Positions 22,714-31,399 of a stretch of DNA of 43,225 nucleotides are shown here, piece by piece. The notes under the pieces are model-generated. The model made no database searches, had not been told where the DNA came from, and worked only from the letters and a program-made list of their open reading frames with translations. The stretch is from an uncultured Pseudomonadales bacterium (GTDB lineage Bacteria > Patescibacteriota > Microgenomatia > UBA1400 > CG1-02-47-37), in NCBI GenBank assembly GCA_964630755.1, contig CAZVYS010000005.1:1-43225 (forward strand), in the 5' to 3' direction. Position numbers and translations under genes: made by a program. The first letter of the stretch is position 1; the number at the start of each line of letters is the position of its first letter.

Positions 22714-23852
22714 AGAAATGGCCAAACATATTAGCACTAATAGTGGTTTTAATAGTAGGCATTATTGGCGGAGTGGTTGGTGGTCGATGGTTTCCAGAAA
22801 ATAAAAACGCAATTAGTAATGAAAAAACAGAGGTTCGTGAGATTTTAAAAGAAGAAAACGCAGTTATTGATGTGGTAGATAAGGTAACTCCGTCAGTAGT
22901 GACGGTTGGAGTTAAAAAAACTGAAACGTTTATTAACCGAGATTCGTTCTTGTTTGACCCGTTTGGTTTTTTTGGTAACTCTAATCAACCTCAGGTTGAA
23001 GAAAGGAATATTGAGCAAGATATTGGCTCTGGATTTATTCTTTCAGAAGACGGTTTAGTAGTGACTAATAAACATGTAGTAAGCGATCTTAAGGCTGAGT
23101 ATCGAGTAATTACTTATAGTGACGAAGAACTTAAAGTAGAAAAGATTTATAGAGATCCAGTTAATGATTTAGCTATTTTAAAAGTTAGCCCAACTCAATT
23201 GTTTAGATCGATCGAGTTGGGAGATAGTGATAATTTAAAAGTTGGACAAGTAGTGGTTGCTATTGGAACTGCTTTAGGAGAATTTAGATCAACAGTAACT
23301 ACTGGGGTAATTTCTGGTTTGGGTCGCGGAATTGATGCTGGTACGCCATTTGGGGGAGTGAGTGAAGAACTAAACAACGTGATTCAAACAGATGCAGCTA
23401 TTAATCCAGGGAATTCAGGCGGACCGCTGTTAAACTCATCCGGAGCAGTAATCGGAGTTAATGTGGCGGTGTCTCAGGCTGGAGAAAATATTGGTTTTGC
23501 GATTCCAATTAACATTGTTAAAGATTCAATTGATACGTTTGAAGAAACGGGTAAGTTTTCTCGAGCTTTTTTGGGCGTCAGATATCAAATGATTGATAAA
23601 AGAACGGCCATTTTAAACTCTGTGCCACAAGGAGCTTATTTAGTGGAAGTGATAGAAGATTCACCAGCAGATAAAGCTCAACTAAGAGAAAACGATATTG
23701 TGACAGAATTTAATGGAACTTTGGTAACAGAAAAACAAAGCATAGCTGAGTTGATTGGTAAAAGTAAGATAGGGGATGAAATTGTTTTAAAGGTTTATCG
23801 TGACGGAGAAACTATGGAAGTTAAAGTCAAGCTTGAAGAAGTTTCACAATAG
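22710..23852 (+). CDS. HtrA/DegP-family serine protease with one PDZ domain
   Basis: GSGFI, TNKHVV, DLAILK, IQTDAAINPGNSGGPL. Confidence 0.94.
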   Translation: MKKWPNILALIVVLIVGIIGGVVGGRWFPENKNAISNEKTEVREILKEENAVIDVVDKVTPSVVTVGVKKTETFINRDSFLFDPFGFFGNSNQPQVEERNIEQDIGSGFILSEDGLVVTNKHVVSDLKAEYRVITYSDEELKVEKIYRDPVNDLAILKVSPTQLFRSIELGDSDNLKVGQVVVAIGTALGEFRSTVTTGVISGLGRGIDAGTPFGGVSEELNNVIQTDAAINPGNSGGPLLNSSGAVIGVNVAVSQAGENIGFAIPINIVKDSIDTFEETGKFSRAFLGVRYQMIDKRTAILNSVPQGAYLVEVIEDSPADKAQLRENDIVTEFNGTLVTEKQSIAELIGKSKIGDEIVLKVYRDGETMEVKVKLEEVSQ

Positions 23853-24720
23853 GAAGTAAGTTTCCTTCAAGAATTTTATCAAGATTTTTCCATGACTTTT
23901 GGACGCGGTGGTCAGTGACTCGGTTTTGAGGATAGTTGTAAGTTCTAATTTTTTCGGCTCTCATACCTCGACCAACTGCCTGAGATCGAGCATCTTTGAT
24001 CTCTGCCTGTTTTTTATCTTGCTGGATTTGATAGAGTTTGCCTCTAAGTAGATCAAAAGCTATTTTTCGGTTTTGTTCTTGGGTGCGTTGGGTTTGGGAT
24101 TCAATCACAATTTCAGTGGGTAAGTGTTTAAGTCTAACTGCAGTTGAGACCTTATTAACGTTTTGTCCACCTGAGCCTGAAGATCTATAAAAAGTAATTT
24201 GAATATCTTTAGGATCAATTTTAATTTCTGTTTCTTTAATTTCTGGTAGAACAGTTACTGTGGCAGTAGAGGTATGAATCCGACCATGAGATTCAGTGGT
24301 AGGAATTCTCTGGACTCGGTGAACTCCAGCCTCATGTTGAAATAACTGAAAGGCTTTTTTGCCTTTGATTTTGATCATGCCCTTGTCTAGAGGAGTGATT
24401 TGTAGATTTTGAGAGTCAGCAAAGCGAGTATACATTTCCAGTAAATCGTCAGCCCAGATTTTAGCTTCTTCACCACCTGCGGCAGATCTAACTTCTATTA
24501 TGGCGTTACCTTGACGGGTGTGAGTTCGATCAAGATGATTTTCTTTTTTCTCGATATTCCCGTTCCGGATCGGAGATGAATCAAGGAGTTTAAGCTGTTT
24601 TTTTAACTCAGCAATTTCTTGCTTAGCTAGTTCTTTTAGTTGAGGATCGTCAAGGGAAGCTTTGGCTTTGACTAGTTTATGTTTAAGCCTTTTTATTTCT
24701 TCGTTAAGATAGTTGTTCAT
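23827..24720 (-). CDS. prfA: peptide chain release factor 1 (short N-terminal domain)
   Basis: [19 protein letters not shown] (PxT), [22 protein letters not shown]; follows rpmE. Confidence 0.95.
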
Positions 24721-25031
24721 TTTTTTCGCTTTTCGGCTTGGATCATTTCCTTGAGAGTAGTAGGTTTAGCTTGATCTTTTTCGACTTGAAGATTTTTCCG
24801 ATCAGATTTTTTAACAAAAACTTTCTTTTTAGCTACAGCTTGTTTCTTTTGAAATTTTTCAACTCGGCCCATAGTGTCAATGAACTTCATTTTACCAGTG
24901 AAAAATGGATGACAAGCATTGCAGATCTCGACCTGGATGGTTTTCTTGGTTGAGCCAGTGGTAAATGTGTTACCACAAGCACAAGTGACTTGACAGTCGT
25001 TATAGTATTTTGGATGAATCCCTTTTTTCAT
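24717..25031 (-). CDS. rpmE: 50S ribosomal protein L31 with C-terminal extension
   Basis: MKKGIHP.Y, CACG, C..CHPFFTG, GRVEKF. Confidence 0.96.
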
Positions 25032-25067
25032 AAATTGACTTTATTCTACAGCTTTGGATTATATCAG

Positions 25068-25973
25068 TTATTTAAGTCTCTTTCTAGGTCTTATTTCAGC
25101 TAAAAAGACACCAAAAGAGATAATGACTACAGCTAAGATTTGACCCCAGGTGGGCATTTCTTTTAATAACCAGAAAGCAACTGGAATAGCTACCACTGCT
25201 TGTAAATATTGGAAAAGAGAGGCTTCTGAAGCCTCGATTAAGTCTTGGCCATAGATGCGAGTGGTTAAAGCAATAATTGAACCTGGAATAGCCATGTAAA
25301 AACTAGCTAGAGCCACCGAGGGAATGGTGAGTAAGGAGATTGGGGTAGGGGTTTGGGTTAGTTTTAGATAAAAAGCAAAGGAGATTAAACAGATTAAGTA
25401 ACTGGTAGAGGTGACAAACATTTTAGGTACTTTATAGTAGTGTTTTTTAATAACTAGATAATAAGTAGTGGCTAGAAAGTTATAGAGTAAAATAATTAAG
25501 TTACCAGAGAAGGAAAAAGTAGTTAAAAGTGATTGACCCCTAAAGATGGGTTCAAATACTAGTAGTAAAGTGCCTAAGAAGCTAATAATCAAGCCAATCC
25601 ATTCTCGCTTTTCTTCTTTTTCTTTTAAAAAGAAAATACCGCCAAGAGTAACTAAGATCGGGCTGGTGGCAGCAATTAAAGAAGCTTCGATAGCAGAAGT
25701 TTTGGTTAAGCCGATGTATAGAATGCTTAAGGCCACTGGAGCGCCAAAAAACTCGATTAAAATAATTTTAAGAAGCTTTTTTAAGCTAGGTTTAAGCTTT
25801 TTTAGATAGTAGATTAAAACCGGAAAAGTTAAGGGCGCAGCAATTAGATAGCGAAAGTATAGAAACTGAAAAGGGGAGATGTGGTCAAGAGAAGGCTTAA
25901 TAACAGGAAAAGCCGCACCCCAGATTAAAGTAGTAGTTAGTAAAGCTAGATAGGCTTTGGTTCGTTTGGGCAT
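25068..25973 (-). CDS. EamA/DMT family transporter
   Basis: About 10 TM helices, IWG..F, two EamA repeats ending in LKE. Confidence 0.88.
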   Translation of the reverse strand: MPKRTKAYLALLTTTLIWGAAFPVIKPSLDHISPFQFLYFRYLIAAPLTFPVLIYYLKKLKPSLKKLLKIILIEFFGAPVALSILYIGLTKTSAIEASLIAATSPILVTLGGIFFLKEKEEKREWIGLIISFLGTLLLVFEPIFRGQSLLTTFSFSGNLIILLYNFLATTYYLVIKKHYYKVPKMFVTSTSYLICLISFAFYLKLTQTPTPISLLTIPSVALASFYMAIPGSIIALTTRIYGQDLIEASEASLFQYLQAVVAIPVAFWLLKEMPTWGQILAVVIISFGVFLAEIRPRKRLK

Positions 25974-25982
25974 TAACTAGTA

Positions 25983-27296
25983 TTATTTCAGTTTTGAGAT
26001 GACTTTATCAAGAGGGAGAGTGGTTTGGATTTTTGCTTTCATGTCTTTTAAAGTGACTAGATTCTTTTTGATCTCATCTTCACCAATGATCAAAACATAT
26101 GGAATGTTTTTATTGTCAGCGTATTTTAGTTGTTTGTTTAGCTTTTCAAGCTCCGGATAGAGCATGGCGCTGATATTGTTCTTTCGAAGTTTATCAGCAG
26201 TAACTAAACTTTTCTTAAAAGTTTTATCATCAAACCAAGTAACTAATATTTTTACTGGAGTAGTATCGATTTTGATCATTTTTCGATCTTTAATAACTTC
26301 AACAATTCTTTCGATGCCAAATGATCCGCCGGTAGCTGGGATCTGTTTGCCAGTGCCAAGCAGGTTGCCAATGGTGTTGTCATAGCGTCCGCAACCAGCA
26401 ACTGAACCAATATTTCCCTCGAGAATTTCAAATTCCCAGATGGGTCCAGTATAGTAGGCTAGGCCTCGGGCGATAAAAGGGGCAAACTGATAAAACTTGG
26501 GATTGATCTTAACGGTCTTAAAGTATTTAAAAATGGTTTCTAGTTCGCTTAAACCCTCAACAGCTTCAGGGATTTGTTTCATTTGGGTTTTAAATAGTTT
26601 GATTAAATCATTAGTTTTGCCAGTGGTAGTGATGATTGAGAGAACTTTATCAGCTACATTTTCTGATATTTTTCTTTTTTCGATTAGCTCTTTTTTAACT
26701 TTTTCTTTGCCAAGTTTTGGCAGTTTGTCGATTGACAAGCAGATAGGGATAAAATCAGAGTCTTTGGCACCAGCGTATTTGATTAAACCATTTAAAAACT
26801 TACGATTGGAGATGTTAGCTACAAAGCCTTTAAAGTTTAGTTTTTGCATCACTTCGATACCCATCTGAATAAATTCTGCATCAGTAATAACTGAGGCAGT
26901 GCCGATAGTATCAGCATCACATTGAGTAAATTCGCGGTAACGACCTTTTTGAGGCTTGTCAGCACGCCAGACTGGTTGAATTTGGTAGCGTTTGTAAGGA
27001 AAAGTTAACTTATTAATGTTTTCAGCTACAGCTCTACACATAGGGATCATTACTTCGTATTTGAGCATGATGTCTCTATTGCCTTGATCTTTAAAGCGAT
27101 AAAATAGTTTAGCTGCTTCTTCGCCAGCTTCACCTTGGAAAATATTAGTGTATTCTAAAGCTGGAGTTTGTAAGGGTTCGTAACCGTAACTCTCAAACAC
27201 CTCTTTAAAGGCGTTAATAACAAATTCTCGTATTCTAATATCTTCGGTAAAGAAGTCTCTGAATCCAGCTAGTTTTTGGGCTTTTAGTTTATTCAT
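25983..27296 (-). CDS. hisS: histidine--tRNA ligase
   Basis: GFRDF, WRADKPQKGRYREFTQCDAD, RGLAYYTG, GRYD, GSFGIERI, anticodon domain. Confidence 0.97.
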   Translation of the reverse strand: MNKLKAQKLAGFRDFFTEDIRIREFVINAFKEVFESYGYEPLQTPALEYTNIFQGEAGEEAAKLFYRFKDQGNRDIMLKYEVMIPMCRAVAENINKLTFPYKRYQIQPVWRADKPQKGRYREFTQCDADTIGTASVITDAEFIQMGIEVMQKLNFKGFVANISNRKFLNGLIKYAGAKDSDFIPICLSIDKLPKLGKEKVKKELIEKRKISENVADKVLSIITTTGKTNDLIKLFKTQMKQIPEAVEGLSELETIFKYFKTVKINPKFYQFAPFIARGLAYYTGPIWEFEILEGNIGSVAGCGRYDNTIGNLLGTGKQIPATGGSFGIERIVEVIKDRKMIKIDTTPVKILVTWFDDKTFKKSLVTADKLRKNNISAMLYPELEKLNKQLKYADNKNIPYVLIIGEDEIKKNLVTLKDMKAKIQTTLPLDKVISKLK

Positions 27297-27333
27297 ATTT
27301 ATTAGTTTACCATAGTTTATTTTATATTTATTT

Positions 27334-27358
27334 ACCTTCAGGGATGATCCCTGTAGGT
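27334..27358. repeat. REP-like palindrome (family B), diverged copy
   Basis: ACCTTCAGGGATGATCCCTGTAGGT. Confidence 0.65.
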
Positions 27359-27400
27359 GTGTGAAAAGATTGTTCTTGAGGTGCTTTGGTCATATTTCAG

Positions 27401-27424
27401 CCTGCAGGGACAGACCCTGCAGGT
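27401..27424. repeat. REP-like palindrome (family B)
   Basis: CCTGCAGGGACAGACCCTGCAGGT, identical to 30195-30218. Confidence 0.9.
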
Positions 27425-27427
27425 GGA

Positions 27428-28378
27428 TTAAATTAGTATTTGGTTGTTTTTTAAGATGGGTTTATTGTCGACTAAAAGACTTGGATTAAGAATAATGCCA
27501 TCTGAGTGAAAGGGGATCGAGATTTTTCCGCCAAAACCCTGGTTGTTGCCTAGGGCTATATGGCAAGTTCCATATACTTTTTCAGCCTCTAATACCTCTG
27601 GAGAGAGCTTGCAATTAGGATTGGTACCAATACCAAGTTCTGCAATGATTTTAGCTTTGGGACTGACTTTTTGAATTAGTTTGTTTAAGGTTTTAGCGGC
27701 TTTTCCGCCAGTAATTGAGTAAGCAACTCCGTTTTTGACAAGTAACTTAATCGGTTTATCTAGAACAATATCTGCAAATGCGCCGTCAAAAACAATGGTT
27801 CCGTTGGTTTTTTCCTCAACTGGGGCTACAAAAGCTTCACCAGCTGGTAAGTTACCAAAATCACCAGGTTTGGTAAATAGACCAGTGTCTGCGATAGCTG
27901 GGCGGTTGGTGATGTCTAGATTTAGATTAGTTCCACCAGGAGAGGTGATAGTAACCTTATTGCCAGTAGTTAAGATTTTGGCTAGTTTTTGACTGATTTT
28001 AGCTATTTTTGAATAATTTCCAGCTAAGGTTCGAGTAACCATATCTTGAGTAATACCAGGCATAGAAGCGATTCTACAACCAGCTAGATTTGCTTTTTTT
28101 CGAGCTTGGGTATGAGAGAGTGAAAAAGTAGTGACTAGTAAAGCAACATCTGATGCAGCCATTTTTTTGGCTATCTTTGTAGGTGGTTCCTGAGCGTTTT
28201 CTGTCATAGTGTCAAAAGAAATTAGCTTAGCATTATTAGTAATTTCTTTAGCTGCTTTTAGAAATTTTTCAGCCAATGATTTTTGATCCGGATCGGTAAT
28301 GATGAGGATTGATTCGTTAGGTTTTAAAGCCATGCATTGGTTCATGACGTTTTGAAAAGCTGATAATGTTTTTTTCAT
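27428..28378 (-). CDS. aminopeptidase, M29/aminopeptidase T-like family
   Basis: GNLPAGEAFVAP, AELGIGTNP, LEAEKVYGTCHIALG.N...GG, HSD. Confidence 0.85.
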   Translation of the reverse strand: MKKTLSAFQNVMNQCMALKPNESILIITDPDQKSLAEKFLKAAKEITNNAKLISFDTMTENAQEPPTKIAKKMAASDVALLVTTFSLSHTQARKKANLAGCRIASMPGITQDMVTRTLAGNYSKIAKISQKLAKILTTGNKVTITSPGGTNLNLDITNRPAIADTGLFTKPGDFGNLPAGEAFVAPVEEKTNGTIVFDGAFADIVLDKPIKLLVKNGVAYSITGGKAAKTLNKLIQKVSPKAKIIAELGIGTNPNCKLSPEVLEAEKVYGTCHIALGNNQGFGGKISIPFHSDGIILNPSLLVDNKPILKNNQILI

Positions 28379-28391
28379 AAGTATTATTATA

Positions 28392-29675
28392 CTAGGGAAG
28401 TTGATTAGTAGTTAAGGCTTTGATGCCTAATTTTAAAAATTTCCAGTAACTTGGGTTAAAAAATTTAACGTACATAGGTATTGTTTTTAAGATAGAAAGA
28501 TTTGAAATTTTTCCAAATCTTTTAGCATTAAATCTAGAAAGATCGTAAGGAGAACCTTTTCTAAAGATCATTTCAGCTAAGGATCGTCCAACTAGGGGAG
28601 CGAATTTATAGCCAGTACCACAAAAACCGGCAGCAATATATGTATTTTTATAGCCAGGCAAAAGTGAGACAATAAAGTCATTGTCTGGGGTCATTTGATA
28701 AAACCCAGATTCGATTTTAGCTAGTTTAATTGGTTTAAGTGAGGGCAGGCATTGATTAATAAAATCTGCTTGAGACTTGATTTGATTTTGTTTTGGAGGG
28801 CAAAGACCTGATTTAGTTAGTTTGGCTCCAAAAGGATCAAAGTAGGCAATCTTTAAACCTGGAGTTTTTTTATAGGTAGGGTGACCATAGATACCAACGT
28901 CAAGATAAGCAAAAACAGGTAACTTTTTAGCTTGAAAGTTTTTAATTTGTTTTTTTGGAACTTTAAAATACTTTAGTTTTTGCTTAACTGGGATAACTGG
29001 TAGTTTTAACCATTGGCCACCTTTTAGATTGTTTAGCATTTCTATAGTCCAAGCTCCAACAGTTAAAGCTAGTTTTTTGGTGAGTATTACTTGACCAGAT
29101 TTTAGAGTAATTTTAGTAATGTCTTTATCAGGTTTGATGTTAATTACTTTGGAGTTTTGCTTGATAGTAACTTTATTTTTAAGCAGCTTAGTAAGTAACT
29201 TAAAAATTGTAGGGATGTAAAGAAAACCAGCATCAATATCTAGGCAACTAAGGTCAGCTTTAAATTGAGGAAAACTTTTCGATAGTTTTGAATTGTTGGT
29301 GAATTTTTTTACTTTGAATCCAAGAGACTTCATTACTTTGTAGCTAGACATGGTGTAAGTAGAGCTAAGATTAGGGGTAGTGTTTTTTTTGGCAATGTTT
29401 AAGACGCCAGATTTAATAATAAATTCTTGTTTTGACTTTGTTTCTAGTTCTTCCCAAAGTTTTTTGGATTCAGAAGCTAGGCGGGAGTAGTAAGGATCAA
29501 GATAGTCGTTTCTGATAGATCTTGAAAATCCAGATGAACCAGCGTATTTATTACCTATGGTACGCTTTTCAAGCAAAAGAATCTTTTTATTGAAAAGACT
29601 TGCATAGTAGGCGGTAAATAAGCCCATGATGCCACCACCAACAATAACTAGATCGTATGGTTGTTTTTTTATCAT
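28392..29675 (-). CDS. FAD-dependent oxidoreductase, sarcosine oxidase/SolA-like (DAO family)
   Basis: GGGIMG, GSSGFSRSIR, YQMTPDNDFIV, GFCGTGYKFAPLVG. Confidence 0.88.
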   Translation of the reverse strand: MIKKQPYDLVIVGGGIMGLFTAYYASLFNKKILLLEKRTIGNKYAGSSGFSRSIRNDYLDPYYSRLASESKKLWEELETKSKQEFIIKSGVLNIAKKNTTPNLSSTYTMSSYKVMKSLGFKVKKFTNNSKLSKSFPQFKADLSCLDIDAGFLYIPTIFKLLTKLLKNKVTIKQNSKVINIKPDKDITKITLKSGQVILTKKLALTVGAWTIEMLNNLKGGQWLKLPVIPVKQKLKYFKVPKKQIKNFQAKKLPVFAYLDVGIYGHPTYKKTPGLKIAYFDPFGAKLTKSGLCPPKQNQIKSQADFINQCLPSLKPIKLAKIESGFYQMTPDNDFIVSLLPGYKNTYIAAGFCGTGYKFAPLVGRSLAEMIFRKGSPYDLSRFNAKRFGKISNLSILKTIPMYVKFFNPSYWKFLKLGIKALTTNQLP

Positions 29676-29707
29676 ATTTTTCCTTTTTACTTGATATTAG
29701 TAGGCAT

Positions 29708-29730
29708 AAAAAAACCCGCGAAAGTGCGGG
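29708..29730 (-). terminator. attenuator terminator
   Basis: Minus strand CCCGC-ACTTTC-GCGGG-T7, about 30 nt upstream of the flavoprotein ATG. Confidence 0.8.
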
Positions 29731-29759
29731 GTAGGGAAGTACTTAATAAGTTTTATTAG

Positions 29760-29828
29760 TTACAGCCGATTTAGCCCGCACAAAAGTGGGGCGTGATGAG
29801 AAATTGATAATTTATTTGATTTTGTCAT
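29760..29828 (-). CDS. putative His-sensing leader peptide MTKSNKLSISHHAPLLCGLNRL
   Basis: 22-aa uORF with tandem CAT CAC directly before alternative pairing segments. Confidence 0.65.
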   Translation of the reverse strand: MTKSNKLSISHHAPLLCGLNRL

Positions 29829-29834
29829 ATTTTA

Positions 29835-29886
29835 TATATATTAACGTGTTAATACGCTAATATATACTAAAAAAATAATTTGTCAA
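29835..29886 (-). promoter_or_regulatory. promoter with overlapping palindromic operator (candidate HisR/YerC site)
   Basis: TTGACA at 29886-29881; TATATATTAGCGTATTAACACGTTAATATATA (29866-29835) matches its reverse complement at 28 of 32 positions. Confidence 0.68.
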
Positions 29887-29894
29887 GTGGATAA

Positions 29895-30155
29895 TTAAGT
29901 TAAACGTTTAAGAATTAATTTATAACCACCTTTGCCATGTTTGAGCCAATGAGAAACTCGAGTAACTGTAGTGGTAGAAGTTTTAGTAAGTTTAGCAATC
30001 TTGGCATAGGGGAGGCCTTGATGTAATAGTCTTGCGATTTTAAATCTTTGAGTGATAGTTTTAATTTCTTTAATGGTGAGTAGATCTCTTAGAAACGTAG
30101 CTACTTCTTTTTCTGTTTTTAGTTTAAGAATAGCTTGGTATAGTTTAGAAGACAT
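29895..30155 (-). CDS. TrpR-like YerC/YecD (HisR) family regulator
   Basis: LY.AIL.L....E...FLRDLLT..E.....QR, Y..IA..T..STTTVTRV..WL..G.GGY. Confidence 0.92.
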   Translation of the reverse strand: MSSKLYQAILKLKTEKEVATFLRDLLTIKEIKTITQRFKIARLLHQGLPYAKIAKLTKTSTTTVTRVSHWLKHGKGGYKLILKRLT

Positions 30156-30192
30156 GATGAATAGATTATATCAAAAAGGTTAGGAATTAATT

Positions 30193-30219
30193 AACCTGCA
30201 GGGACAGACCCTGCAGGTT
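30193..30219. repeat. REP-like palindrome (family B)
   Basis: AACCTGCAGGGACAGACCCTGCAGGTT, 11-bp arms. Confidence 0.9.
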
Positions 30220-30223
30220 GAAA

Positions 30224-31399
30224 TTATTCTGTTTCGGCGGATTCAGTGGCTTCGGCAGAGTCAGTGGCTTCGTTTTGATTGGTTGGTTCTAGGGCAGCTG
30301 GATTATTTTTACCAGGAATAACTAAAATATTTTTAACTTCATCAATATCTCCGTTTTGGTCTAGAGTAGCAATAGCGAATAGATTATCATCTAGCTCAAG
30401 GTCTTCAACTTCTGGATCTTCAATATCTTTAATGTCTAGATTGGTTTTCAAGTTGACTGTTAGTCGTTTGTTGTCAACAACTACTTTATTGCTATCGATT
30501 TCTTCGATTTTGCCGGTGATTAGCTGTCGAACCTGAGGAGATTTGGGTGGTTCTATTTGGAGAATTCTTTGAGCTTGAAGTGATTCAGAATCTTTATAAA
30601 CAAAACCAAAACAAATCAAGAAATCTTCTACTTTTAGGTCTTTAAGATCAAGGGTGGTTTTGCCTTTTGATTTAACAATTTGAGTTGAGTCTTTTAATGT
30701 AATGGAGCTAGTAAAGGATTTGTATTCAAGTTCAATTGAAGATTGACCAATATTAGTTATTTGACCAATAAAAGCTTTTTTCTTTGGAGTATTAGACTCA
30801 ATTAGAAGTTCATCTTTAATAGTTTCGATGCCTACTTCAGCTGTATCTTGAAGTCGTTCTTTAATTTTATCGGTGATTGACGAATCAGTTGCTTTTTCAG
30901 TTTCATTATCTTGAGCATGAGCAACTGGAACAAGATTAAATGAAGTAGGCTCTTCTAAATCTTCTAGTTCAATCTTTGTAGTGCTGTAAGTTAAGATTAA
31001 AGTTTTTGACTCGGTTTTATTAGTTTCATCTGTAGCGATAATAGTTAGCTCGTTAAAACCATTAATGAGATCTAGATTAAAAGAAAAGATTCCTTCTTTA
31101 TCGGCAGTAATAAGTTGATTATCTGTTTCAGAAATTAGAGCGATTACTGCTTCTGGCCAAGCTATCCCAGATAAAGTTATCTTACTTTGATCAATTAAAT
31201 CGAAATTTTGGTGAGACGTAATACTTAATTTTTTAGCTGTTTTTGCTAAAGGGGGACTAGGAACTGTATCAGTTTGGTTTTCAACTTGTTTTTTAACTCT
31301 GATTTTATTAATTGATTTATTGGCAGTATAAATTCCTAAGGTTATGATTAAACCAAGAATTAAACCAGAGACAACAGCAACAATTACTTCTTTTTTCAT
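30224..31399 (-). CDS. membrane-anchored hypothetical protein with Ig-like and OB-like (DUF5666-like) repeats
   Basis: N-terminal TM; ITLSG...G.FSF.L.L..G.N.LTIIATD; two G.I..I....T.I...DL.V.D units; ATDSA/ATESA tail. Confidence 0.65.
   Translation of the reverse strand: MKKEVIVAVVSGLILGLIITLGIYTANKSINKIRVKKQVENQTDTVPSPPLAKTAKKLSITSHQNFDLIDQSKITLSGIAWPEAVIALISETDNQLITADKEGIFSFNLDLINGFNELTIIATDETNKTESKTLILTYSTTKIELEDLEEPTSFNLVPVAHAQDNETEKATDSSITDKIKERLQDTAEVGIETIKDELLIESNTPKKKAFIGQITNIGQSSIELEYKSFTSSITLKDSTQIVKSKGKTTLDLKDLKVEDFLICFGFVYKDSESLQAQRILQIEPPKSPQVRQLITGKIEEIDSNKVVVDNKRLTVNLKTNLDIKDIEDPEVEDLELDDNLFAIATLDQNGDIDEVKNILVIPGKNNPAALEPTNQNEATDSAEATESAETE

Follow-up and report, generated by a model that had tools for sequence, protein, structure and literature searches.

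A HisR operator and a His-codon leader before a flavoprotein gene and hisS: a putative two-level histidine-starvation switch in a patescibacterial genome

We analyzed a 43,225-nt stretch of DNA (contig CAZVYS010000005.1, assembly GCA_964630755.1; hereafter the window) from an uncultured bacterium of the Microgenomatia. The work centers on its minus strand, where hisR, coding for a small TrpR-family repressor, is followed by a short spacer, a gene for a flavoprotein resembling sarcosine oxidase, a peptidase gene, hisS and a transporter gene. The explanation of the whole that we favor, with moderate confidence, is a two-level histidine-starvation switch that heads an operon of histidine-poor proteins. 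The regulatory device itself is very probably real. A role of the flavoprotein in histidine salvage is plausible, as a tentative proposal. The features are collected in Table 1; G, L and C numbers are our handles for genomes, loci and contigs, G000 being the genome of the window.

The product of hisR is of the HisR/YerC type, as an earlier note on this DNA, made from the sequence alone, had proposed. It matches Pfam Trp_repressor (PF01371) at 1.1e-25 and passes the cut-off of NCBIfam TIGR02531 yecD_yerC (87.3 bits, cut-off 42.2); it fails that of TrpR proper (TIGR01321; 27.1, cut-off 67.25). The closest PDB match is 3g1c (5.7e-15), named as the HisR of Eubacterium eligens in the available text of Ashniev et al. 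2022 (PMC9413887). According to the same text, R. gnavus HisR bound DNA only with histidine, and by family we infer that histidine is the co-repressor of the window's HisR as well. Orthologues of hisR stand directly 5' of hisG and further his genes in three relatives (G053, G042, G291), and most other loci have hisS further downstream. Elsewhere the genome carries a second TrpR-family paralogue, which is longer (G000 C11:19832-20074, 55 bits to PF01371), and weaker TrpR-family matches (about 26-38% identity) occur in most relatives too.

The TTGACA promoter reported in the earlier note is present downstream of hisR. Among the 22 promoter-like sites in 23500-30400 it ranks first. This total is at chance level (shuffles 19.3 +/- 5.2), so that only the quality of the TTGACA-16-TATATT site and its conservation carry weight; the TTGACA/TATATT pair is also found 5' of the operator in relatives. 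The predicted operator has a perfect 7-2-7 core, TATTAAC/GTTAATA, at 29839-29854, enclosed in 21-nt arms that are 81% complementary, for which "32-bp near-palindrome" was a fair description. The 7-2-7 palindrome pattern has one occurrence in the window (0.03 expected). Relatives keep the operator as RTRTTARC-NN-GYTAAYAY, and the form ACTTTA-N6-TAAAGT is found in some class-level relatives. Scanning the genome for further operators gave none that was convincing; the matches with zero or one mismatch were the locus itself and one site inside an open reading frame (ORF).

The leader peptide, its His-His codons, the three pairing segments and the CCCGC/GCGGG-T7 terminator were all located on the minus strand where they had been described. 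The leader starts with ATG at 29828 and ends with a stop codon at 29762-29760; CAT-CAC are codons 11 and 12 (29798-29793). Segment 1 is GCCCCAC (29786-29792) and segment 2 is GTGCGGGC (29774-29781). Segment 3 can pair with segment 2 over 10 nt at 90% pairing (29724-29733 with 29772-29781), and the predicted energy of this antiterminator pairing is -17.5 kcal/mol versus -8.5 for the terminator hairpin. The fold check suggested in the earlier note was run. The leader fold was better than 200 of 200 shuffles (z = -3.25), and masking of the RNA to 10 nt past the His codons, as a model of a stalled ribosome, flipped the predicted fold to the alternative 2:3 pairing. There are 75 terminator-like sites in the 1.02-Mb genome; only at this one does a short ORF with adjacent His codons end 60 nt or less upstream, and no further HH leaders were found elsewhere in the genome. 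The conserved His-codon ORF and its hairpins are thus predicted to behave as a His-codon attenuator, in agreement with the earlier claim, and we infer that ribosomes stall at the His codons.

Rfam His_leader (RF00514) gave no match to the leader at E <= 10. No Rfam family reached its gathering score, and the only hits were weak Trp_leader matches of 20.1 and 24.5 bits. The element appears to work like hisL while lying outside family RF00514. A reading of the short ORF as a precursor of a RiPP-like peptide (ribosomally synthesized and post-translationally modified) was weighed and rejected, as conservation is limited to the His codons and the later residues track the RNA pairing.

Table 1. Features of the hisR-hisS stretch in the window.
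Feature	Position	Strand	Remarks
EamA/DMT transporter gene	25068..25973	minus	conserved hisS partner
hisS, 437-residue product	25983..27296	minus	only histidyl-tRNA synthetase gene found in genome
Dispersed 23-nt GC-rich hairpin repeat, CCTGCAGGG-ACAGA-CCCTGCAGG	27401..27423		between peptidase gene and hisS
M29-like aminopeptidase homologue, 316 aa	27428..28378	minus	PF02073 at 1.1e-08, partial match
MSOX/MTOX-family FAD amine oxidase-like protein, 427 aa, 1 His	28392..29675	minus	PF01266 at 4.1e-35
Segment 3/terminator	29708..29733	minus	5' arm CCCGC 29726-29730, 3' arm GCGGG 29715-29719, T7 29708-29714
Segments 1 and 2, hairpin just 3' of His codons	29774..29792	minus	in minimum free energy fold of full leader
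Leader ORF, 22 codons and stop, MTKSNKLSISHHAPLLCGLNRL	29760..29828	minus	His codons 29793-29798
Predicted HisR operator, two overlapping 18-bp 8-2-8 palindromes	29838..29863	minus	spans -10 box and transcript start
Sigma-70-like promoter, TTGACA-16-TATATT	29859..29886	minus	11/12 matches
hisR (yerC-like), 86-aa TrpR-family repressor	29895..30155	minus	PF01371, TIGR02531, PDB 3g1c

Conservation of the switch was examined in an order-level sample of 60 relatives searched with the regulator. The search gave 23 orthologue-grade loci including the window's own, three of which end at a contig edge, leaving 20 that could be scored. Operator, short ORF and hairpin with T-run are found in the same order in 16 of the 20. 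The homologue check for His-rich leaders put forward in the earlier note came out positive: 13 of these 16 leaders carry at least two adjacent His codons at the same place. The motifs are HH in nine leaders, HHH in two, and HHHHH, HHYH, HQH, HQ and HY in one each. Outside the His codons the leader peptide is not conserved; the residues that come next mirror the G-rich RNA strand. HisR identities across the relatives with a kept switch are 48-89%. The two closest relatives (G013, G001) keep the complete switch downstream of an insertion, a Phd/YefM-ParE toxin-antitoxin pair that lies between hisR and the promoter-operator-leader (L041 in G013, 772-1321; L042 in G001, 713-1272).

The antiterminator is conserved as well. 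Because the AT-rich spacers are of unequal length and shift the arms, a per-sequence duplex test against shuffles was chosen over column-wise covariation. In 20 of 21 leaders the pairing to the terminator 5' arm outperforms that of 500 shuffles (p < 0.05 each); the combined Fisher value is 9e-26 for the 48 nt after the His codons, the relatives not being independent. The paired strands change together between lineages (GCGGG/CCCGC, GGAGG/CCUCC, GGGCGG/CCGCCC and GGCGGGGUGA/UCACCCCGCC).

The remaining scorable loci comprise two with a T-box-like leader (G053, G042), one with hisD on the same contig (G026) and one with nothing recognizable. In G053 and G042 a weak T-box-like leader is followed by tRNA-His(GTG) and then by hisG-hisD-hisC and further his genes. 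G291 has a T-box-like sequence, read by eye, and then hisG-hisD. Relatives that keep his biosynthesis (L053 in G053, L055 in G042, L072 in G291) thus show the order hisR, operator, T-box-like RNA. The T-box-like match in L026 scores 27.3 bits, below the Rfam threshold of 93; the other T-box-like leaders were read by eye.

A class-level sample extends the picture. The regulator was found at E <= 1e-14 in 36 of 301 genomes, and 31 new loci were read by eye. A His run was seen in 19 of the 31: six have a separate leader, six a long leader, and seven a His run in the C-terminal tail of HisR. The separate leaders are followed by a terminator, and three of the six are divergent from hisR. The long leaders have HH or HHH near the end (..LHHxL in most), then a hairpin over the AAGGAGG of the next gene; one further locus, L084, has this layout with YHQ only. 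In five loci of one family (L070, L079, L083, L088, L089) a leader of ~28 codons ends in ..HH(T/R)L, and the hairpin over AAGGAGG lacks a T-run, which suggests control of translation and not of termination in this variant. The seven HisR tails carry HH to HHHH; a terminator follows in six, and L082 has no clear one. In L074, L080, L086, L087, L091 and L093 (perhaps also L082) the last hisR codons are complementary to the 5' arm of the following terminator. From this complementarity and the His tail, the repressor gene appears to double as the attenuator leader ORF. The other class-level loci have a T-box-like leader before hisG (one), lead straight on to hisS (two) or show nothing recognizable (eight).

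The earlier note had pointed to a lack of biosynthetic his genes and a likely auxotroph, and this agrees with the gene content. No matches to hisD, hisG or IGPD were found in this genome at 97.1% completeness. The single His_biosynth match is a hisF/hisH paralogue pair at a contig edge (G000 C31:3-1009); the gene beside it is presumably N-acetyl-sugar amidotransferase-like, of the type found in polysaccharide clusters. The pair is taken to be of the polysaccharide-cluster type and not of histidine biosynthesis. Among the 61 order-level genomes hisD is found in three, none of which has an HH leader; it was not found in any of the 16 genomes with the switch.

The products of the unit are poor in histidine. 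The flavoprotein has a single His in 427 residues, at the 3.4th percentile of 795 long ORFs (mean 1.83%). The histidyl-tRNA synthetase (HisRS) has none in 437, the peptidase three in 316 and EamA two in 301; rpmE and prfA, the next genes after EamA, are at 1.9% and 3.0% His. From the first cargo gene to hisS, the proteins encoded by the 16 loci with the switch contain 53 His among 17,617 residues (0.30%); 27 of these 52 proteins lack His altogether. The neighboring genes have 110 His in 5,887 residues (1.87%; Mann-Whitney p = 1.8e-9, the relatives not being independent). HisRS has no His in six of 11 genomes and one in the other five. Fourteen of 17 aligned members of the flavoprotein family have zero to two His; the aligned part of MSOX 1zov has 15 by a hand count on the alignment, against one in the flavoprotein of the window. 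Low use of the cognate amino acid is described as a trait of starvation-made enzymes in the available part of PMC4209129. The depletion is consistent with a unit switched on at histidine scarcity, which agrees with the attenuator geometry and with the co-repression of R. gnavus HisR in the available text of PMC9413887.

The flavoprotein shares its fold with known amine oxidases. Its PDB match is 1zov (MSOX, 4.7e-28), and it is 22-24% identical to the MSOX/MTOX/NikD group. An AlphaFold2 model (pLDDT 80.9) gave MSOX, MTOX and NikD as top Foldseek matches (2.8e-31 and TM 0.72-0.80 versus MSOX). Residues R52, R55, K275, Y326 and K357 align to MSOX R49, R52, K265, Y317 and K348, which we take to serve substrate carboxylate binding and oxygen activation; all five are invariant in 17 orthologues. 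MSOX C315 is presumably the site of covalent 8-alpha-S-cysteinyl flavin adenine dinucleotide (FAD), and in the 1zov alignment Gly324 stands at this position. MSOX H45, H269 and H345 are replaced by Ser, Phe and Thr, and a helical C-terminus of ~40 residues is extra. The scores lie below the curated cut-offs (193.6 bits for TIGR01377, cut-off 479.65; 186.7 bits for NF008425, cut-off 257). Given these scores and the missing FAD cysteine, family membership does not class the protein as a sarcosine or N-methyltryptophan oxidase. It probably oxidizes a secondary or cyclic amine of an amino-acid derivative. The regulation makes an N-alpha-substituted histidine the most economical guess at the substrate.

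Among the 60 relatives a clear flavoprotein homologue is found in G056 only (28% identity, E = 2e-15); G016 has short marginal matches (E at least 2e-4). A single-sequence flavoprotein search of the relatives' contigs found no related locus, and the alignment of 17 orthologues was needed. A wider protein search gave ~20 orthologues of the same length with 51-61% identity, the named ones from Patescibacteria, Roizmanbacteria and Gottesmanbacteria. Five full-length orthologues were recovered with their DNA (L058 to L062); a fragment in L063 gave no useful context. In L059, L061 and L062 the orthologues (56-58% identity) are behind the same operator, leader and terminator, with no hisS behind them. 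In these three loci hisR is divergent and the shared spacer holds the operator, a leader with HH, HQ or HH..H, and the terminator, followed by a methyltransferase-like gene (S-adenosylmethionine-dependent, SAM) and then the flavoprotein gene. L058 ends inside the methyltransferase gene, and L060 has the order flavoprotein-hisS-EamA. In L059, hisR is also tail to tail with hutH-hutU. The orthologues behind a switch that lacks hisS indicate that the flavoprotein family travels with the switch independently of hisS, and the flavoprotein is likely to be a member of the histidine-starvation regulon.

The genes downstream, a DAO-family flavoprotein, an M29-like peptidase, hisS and an EamA/DMT transporter, are as the earlier note had described them. 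The order-level frame consists of hisR, the switch, one to five variable genes, hisS, EamA and often rpmE and prfA. Eleven of the 16 order-level leader loci include hisS, and the other five end before it could appear; EamA is within two genes after hisS in 10 of the 11. In three relatives (G006, G005, G021) hisS overlaps the preceding gene by 4 nt, and nine class-level loci have hisS within five genes. The M29-like gene is directly 5' of hisS in G006 and G005 and is present in G001. With such a conserved frame, the most fitting description of the unit is a hisS operon that contains an accessory slot. The earlier proposal that the switch controls the flavoprotein instead of a his operon therefore stands in one part, as the flavoprotein is a real target, and has to be revised in the other, since the unit is a hisS operon with inserted genes. 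Separate promotion of hisS, also suggested there, did not hold up: in relatives hisS overlaps or abuts the cargo and forms the conserved end of the unit, and the "-10 boxes" proposed for the peptidase gene and hisS do not exceed the chance level.

Ahead of hisS is a 131-nt gap that holds an inserted copy of a dispersed hairpin repeat. There is no T-run after this hairpin, so that read-through into hisS is likely, as far as the sequence can tell. Some basal expression of hisS must also exist, since a single HisRS gene was found. The repeat has 12 copies in the genome (up to four mismatches). A second copy at 30195-30217 lies upstream of hisR, and the two bracket the hisR-flavoprotein-peptidase block. 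Five copies are clustered just past the window end (G000 C5:43451-47415), and others are on C4, C14, C16, C3 and C11.

The accessory slot is filled differently elsewhere. It holds His-racemase-like proteins (NF052224 94.8 bits and CntK 90.2 bits, both below cut-offs), histidine ammonia-lyase (HAL), peptidases of the M29, M20, M24 and M15 families, beta-lactamase-family proteins, AstE/AspA-like deacylases, IU-nucleoside hydrolases with phosphoribosyltransferase-HAD fusions, GNAT fusions and proteins of no known family. Toxin-antitoxin genes occur in the slot region of three genomes (Phd/ParE in G013 and G001, Gp49/HTH in G041). The slot of G207 has a protein with an N-terminus that is racemase-like by eye and a Pfam GNAT domain, then an M15 D-Ala-D-Ala-dipeptidase-like gene; G013 (L041 1594-3737) and G251 have the same ~460-500-aa GNAT protein and M15.

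We propose the following mechanism. At the first level HisR with histidine as co-repressor would bind the palindromes that overlap the -10 box together with the initial ~25 nt of the transcript; this would block the TTGACA/TATATT promoter. At the second level, transcripts that have started would be read by a ribosome translating the 22-codon leader. With ample His-tRNA the ribosome would reach the stop codon and cover segment 2; the CCCGC/GCGGG-U7 terminator could then form and transcription would end at ~29708. With scarce His-tRNA the ribosome would stall on CAU-CAC and cover segment 1, and the free segment 2 would pair with the terminator 5' arm. The resulting read-through would give expression of the MSOX-like flavoprotein and the M29-like peptidase, and the transcript would probably continue past the non-terminating hairpin repeat into the only hisS and EamA.

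In an organism without a his pathway the cargo would serve to cope with scarcity. Our best guess is that the flavoprotein oxidatively strips an N-substituent, most plausibly from an N-alpha-alkylated histidine, and so would free histidine, while the peptidase would free it from peptides. A salvage role of the flavoprotein is favored by its extreme His depletion and by the repeated His control of its orthologues. It is possible, in a broader and equally tentative form of this proposal, that the hisR-hisS stretch in ultra-small His-auxotrophs is a catalogue of undescribed His-scavenging enzymes, co-switched and nearly His-free. The cysteine-less MSOX-like oxidase would remove a methyl, carboxyalkyl/opine-type or glycated N-alpha substituent from a derivative of histidine, and together with the M29-like peptidase and EamA would form a new salvage route feeding a histidine-free HisRS.

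Several points weigh against the two-level switch with a salvage cargo. The leader has no Shine-Dalgarno sequence, although the same is true for hisR, the peptidase gene and hisS here. With only two His codons in this leader, and no adjacent His in three of the 16 order-level leaders, the switch may have a low sensitivity. The statistics treat the relatives as more independent than they are. The transcript may end or be processed at the strong hairpin in the 131-nt gap upstream of hisS. Scores far under the MSOX and MTOX cut-offs and the lack of the FAD cysteine mean that chemistry is not transferable from these enzymes to the flavoprotein. HAL is found directly behind a switch that is on at low histidine in five genomes (G001, G029, G017, G325, G086; loci L042, L048, L050, L070, L084), and its presence in the same slot argues against a simple salvage reading. 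This HAL is hutH-grade, with 522 bits on a truncated copy versus a cut-off of 524, and is itself His-poor (3-4 His in ~505-510 residues; L042, L048 and L050 counted). The GNAT and methyltransferase cargo also look histidine-consuming or histidine-modifying and not histidine-releasing. As a way out of the HAL paradox, HAL might run in reverse (urocanate + ammonia -> histidine); this is speculation based on equilibrium values.

These cargo genes lead to the alternative in which the regulation is as described, with a cargo that does not serve salvage but, for example, makes, modifies or removes a derivative or analogue of histidine (D-His, N-methyl-His, N-acetyl-His, urocanate) once charging of His-tRNA drops. 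We consider it rather unlikely. HAL in five genomes would fit it, and so would the racemase-like (by eye) and GNAT protein followed by an M15 D-specific dipeptidase in G207, the GNAT and M15 pairs in G013 and G251, and the SAM methyltransferase gene directly 5' of the flavoprotein orthologues in L058, L059, L061 and L062. Biosynthetic enzymes are also known in the MSOX family, for example NikD. However, spending histidine at scarcity would be costly, and the peptidases (M29, M20, M24, M15) and AstE/AspA deacylases in the slot fit the release of amino acids. HAL, a racemase-like gene and the methyltransferase partner were not found in this genome.

It is also improbable that the switch serves hisS alone, as synthetase feedback, with the flavoprotein and peptidase genes as passengers in a permissive slot that are unrelated to histidine. 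This explanation draws on the conserved end of the unit (hisS, usually then EamA, in 11 of 16 order-level and nine class-level loci), on a cargo that differs even among the closest relatives and on the toxin-antitoxin pairs in the same slot; a His leader before a hisS paralogue in bacilli is reported in the available part of Naville and Gautheret 2010 (PMC2965389). In three genomes, however, the flavoprotein orthologues retain an operator for HisR and a His leader of their own with no hisS behind, and their family is almost His-free. The cargo is also enriched in proteins acting on histidine, such as HAL and His-racemase-like proteins.

A third explanation, which the earlier note had named as a possible refutation, is that the leader is decaying, left over from a his operon since deleted, and that the gene now behind it is unrelated. 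The relatives with hisG and further his genes directly behind hisR (G053, G042, G291) and the hisD on the hisR contig of G026 could be cited for it. Against it, promoter, operator, His codons and both pairings are kept in genomes whose HisR identities range over 48-89% and in which hisD was not found (none of 16), with different cargo behind the switch in the 16 of 20 scorable loci; the downstream products are His-depleted, and the his-bearing relatives use a T-box-like leader instead. A relic is thus very improbable. That the short ORF arose by chance or encodes a small functional peptide, with the hairpin serving as the hisR terminator, is scarcely credible: the missing ribosome binding site and the lack of an Rfam family at threshold, with weak Trp_leader matches only, are outweighed by the strong promoter between hisR and the ORF, by a peptide in which the His codons alone are conserved while the following residues track the RNA pairing, and by HH in 13 of 16 orthologous leaders versus 1.45% of the genome's ATG ORFs of 8-45 codons.

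The two-level switch would put a regulatory label, "made at histidine shortage", on enzymes of unknown role in uncultivated, tiny-genome bacteria that are unable to make amino acids. With such a label, survival of scarcity becomes testable with a few purified proteins. The near-absence of His in the regulated proteins is an independent and easily computed marker, which could map starvation regulons in other auxotrophs.

HisR and His leaders have already been published; we found no description of them for this lineage or for this cargo. In the available text of Ashniev et al. 2022 (PMC9413887), the HisR regulons, found in Firmicutes and a few further phyla, consist of genes for his biosynthesis and His transport; there, His attenuators were looked for, and detected, only in the absence of HisR and T-box control. 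Neither hisS nor Patescibacteria is mentioned in its main text, and its eight supplement text files have none of Patescibacteria, Candidatus, hisS, Microgenomates or Parcubacteria. We found no paper on this arrangement in Patescibacteria; literature coverage was incomplete, so this is not proof of absence. As far as the available text of PMC9413887 goes, the window's HisR resembles the published HisR in being a small TrpR-family protein with a ~20-bp palindromic operator of nTTA-N6-TAAn core, in standing beside his genes in the relatives that keep them, and in a histidine co-repressor, established there for one tested protein. The operator core is ATTA-N6-TAAT here and TTTA-N6-TAAA in the published motif. 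Unlike the published regulons in that text, operator and attenuator are on one transcription unit, without a biosynthetic gene.

The closest parallel in design is the double control of tryptophan synthesis. The E. coli trp operon has the TrpR repressor at its promoter and the trpL attenuator with two regulatory codons. The switch of the window likewise would combine a TrpR-family repressor with a leader of tandem codons and a 1:2, 2:3 and 3:4 geometry, and it has two regulatory codons, as does trpL. Unlike trp, histidine would be sensed through a different effector pocket, and non-biosynthetic genes are controlled in an auxotroph. Enterobacterial hisL (RF00514) shows no sequence or Rfam relationship to the leader. 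Attenuation of synthetase genes by a leader peptide is known from pheM-pheST of E. coli. A His leader before hisS*/hisZ is predicted in bacilli in the available part of Naville and Gautheret 2010 (PMC2965389). As in these two systems, the latter as far as that part describes it, a cognate-codon leader peptide is predicted to control a synthetase gene; unlike in them, there is a repressor as well, and between the leader and hisS stand one to five accessory genes. The modelled flavoprotein appears to share the fold and the FAD-binding N-terminus of MSOX, MTOX/SolA and NikD, and differs from MSOX and MTOX in its low identity, its scores under the curated cut-offs and the Gly at the C315 position. 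The whole would be a histidine counterpart of the trp double lock, attached to a synthetase gene and shifting accessory enzymes and not to biosynthesis.

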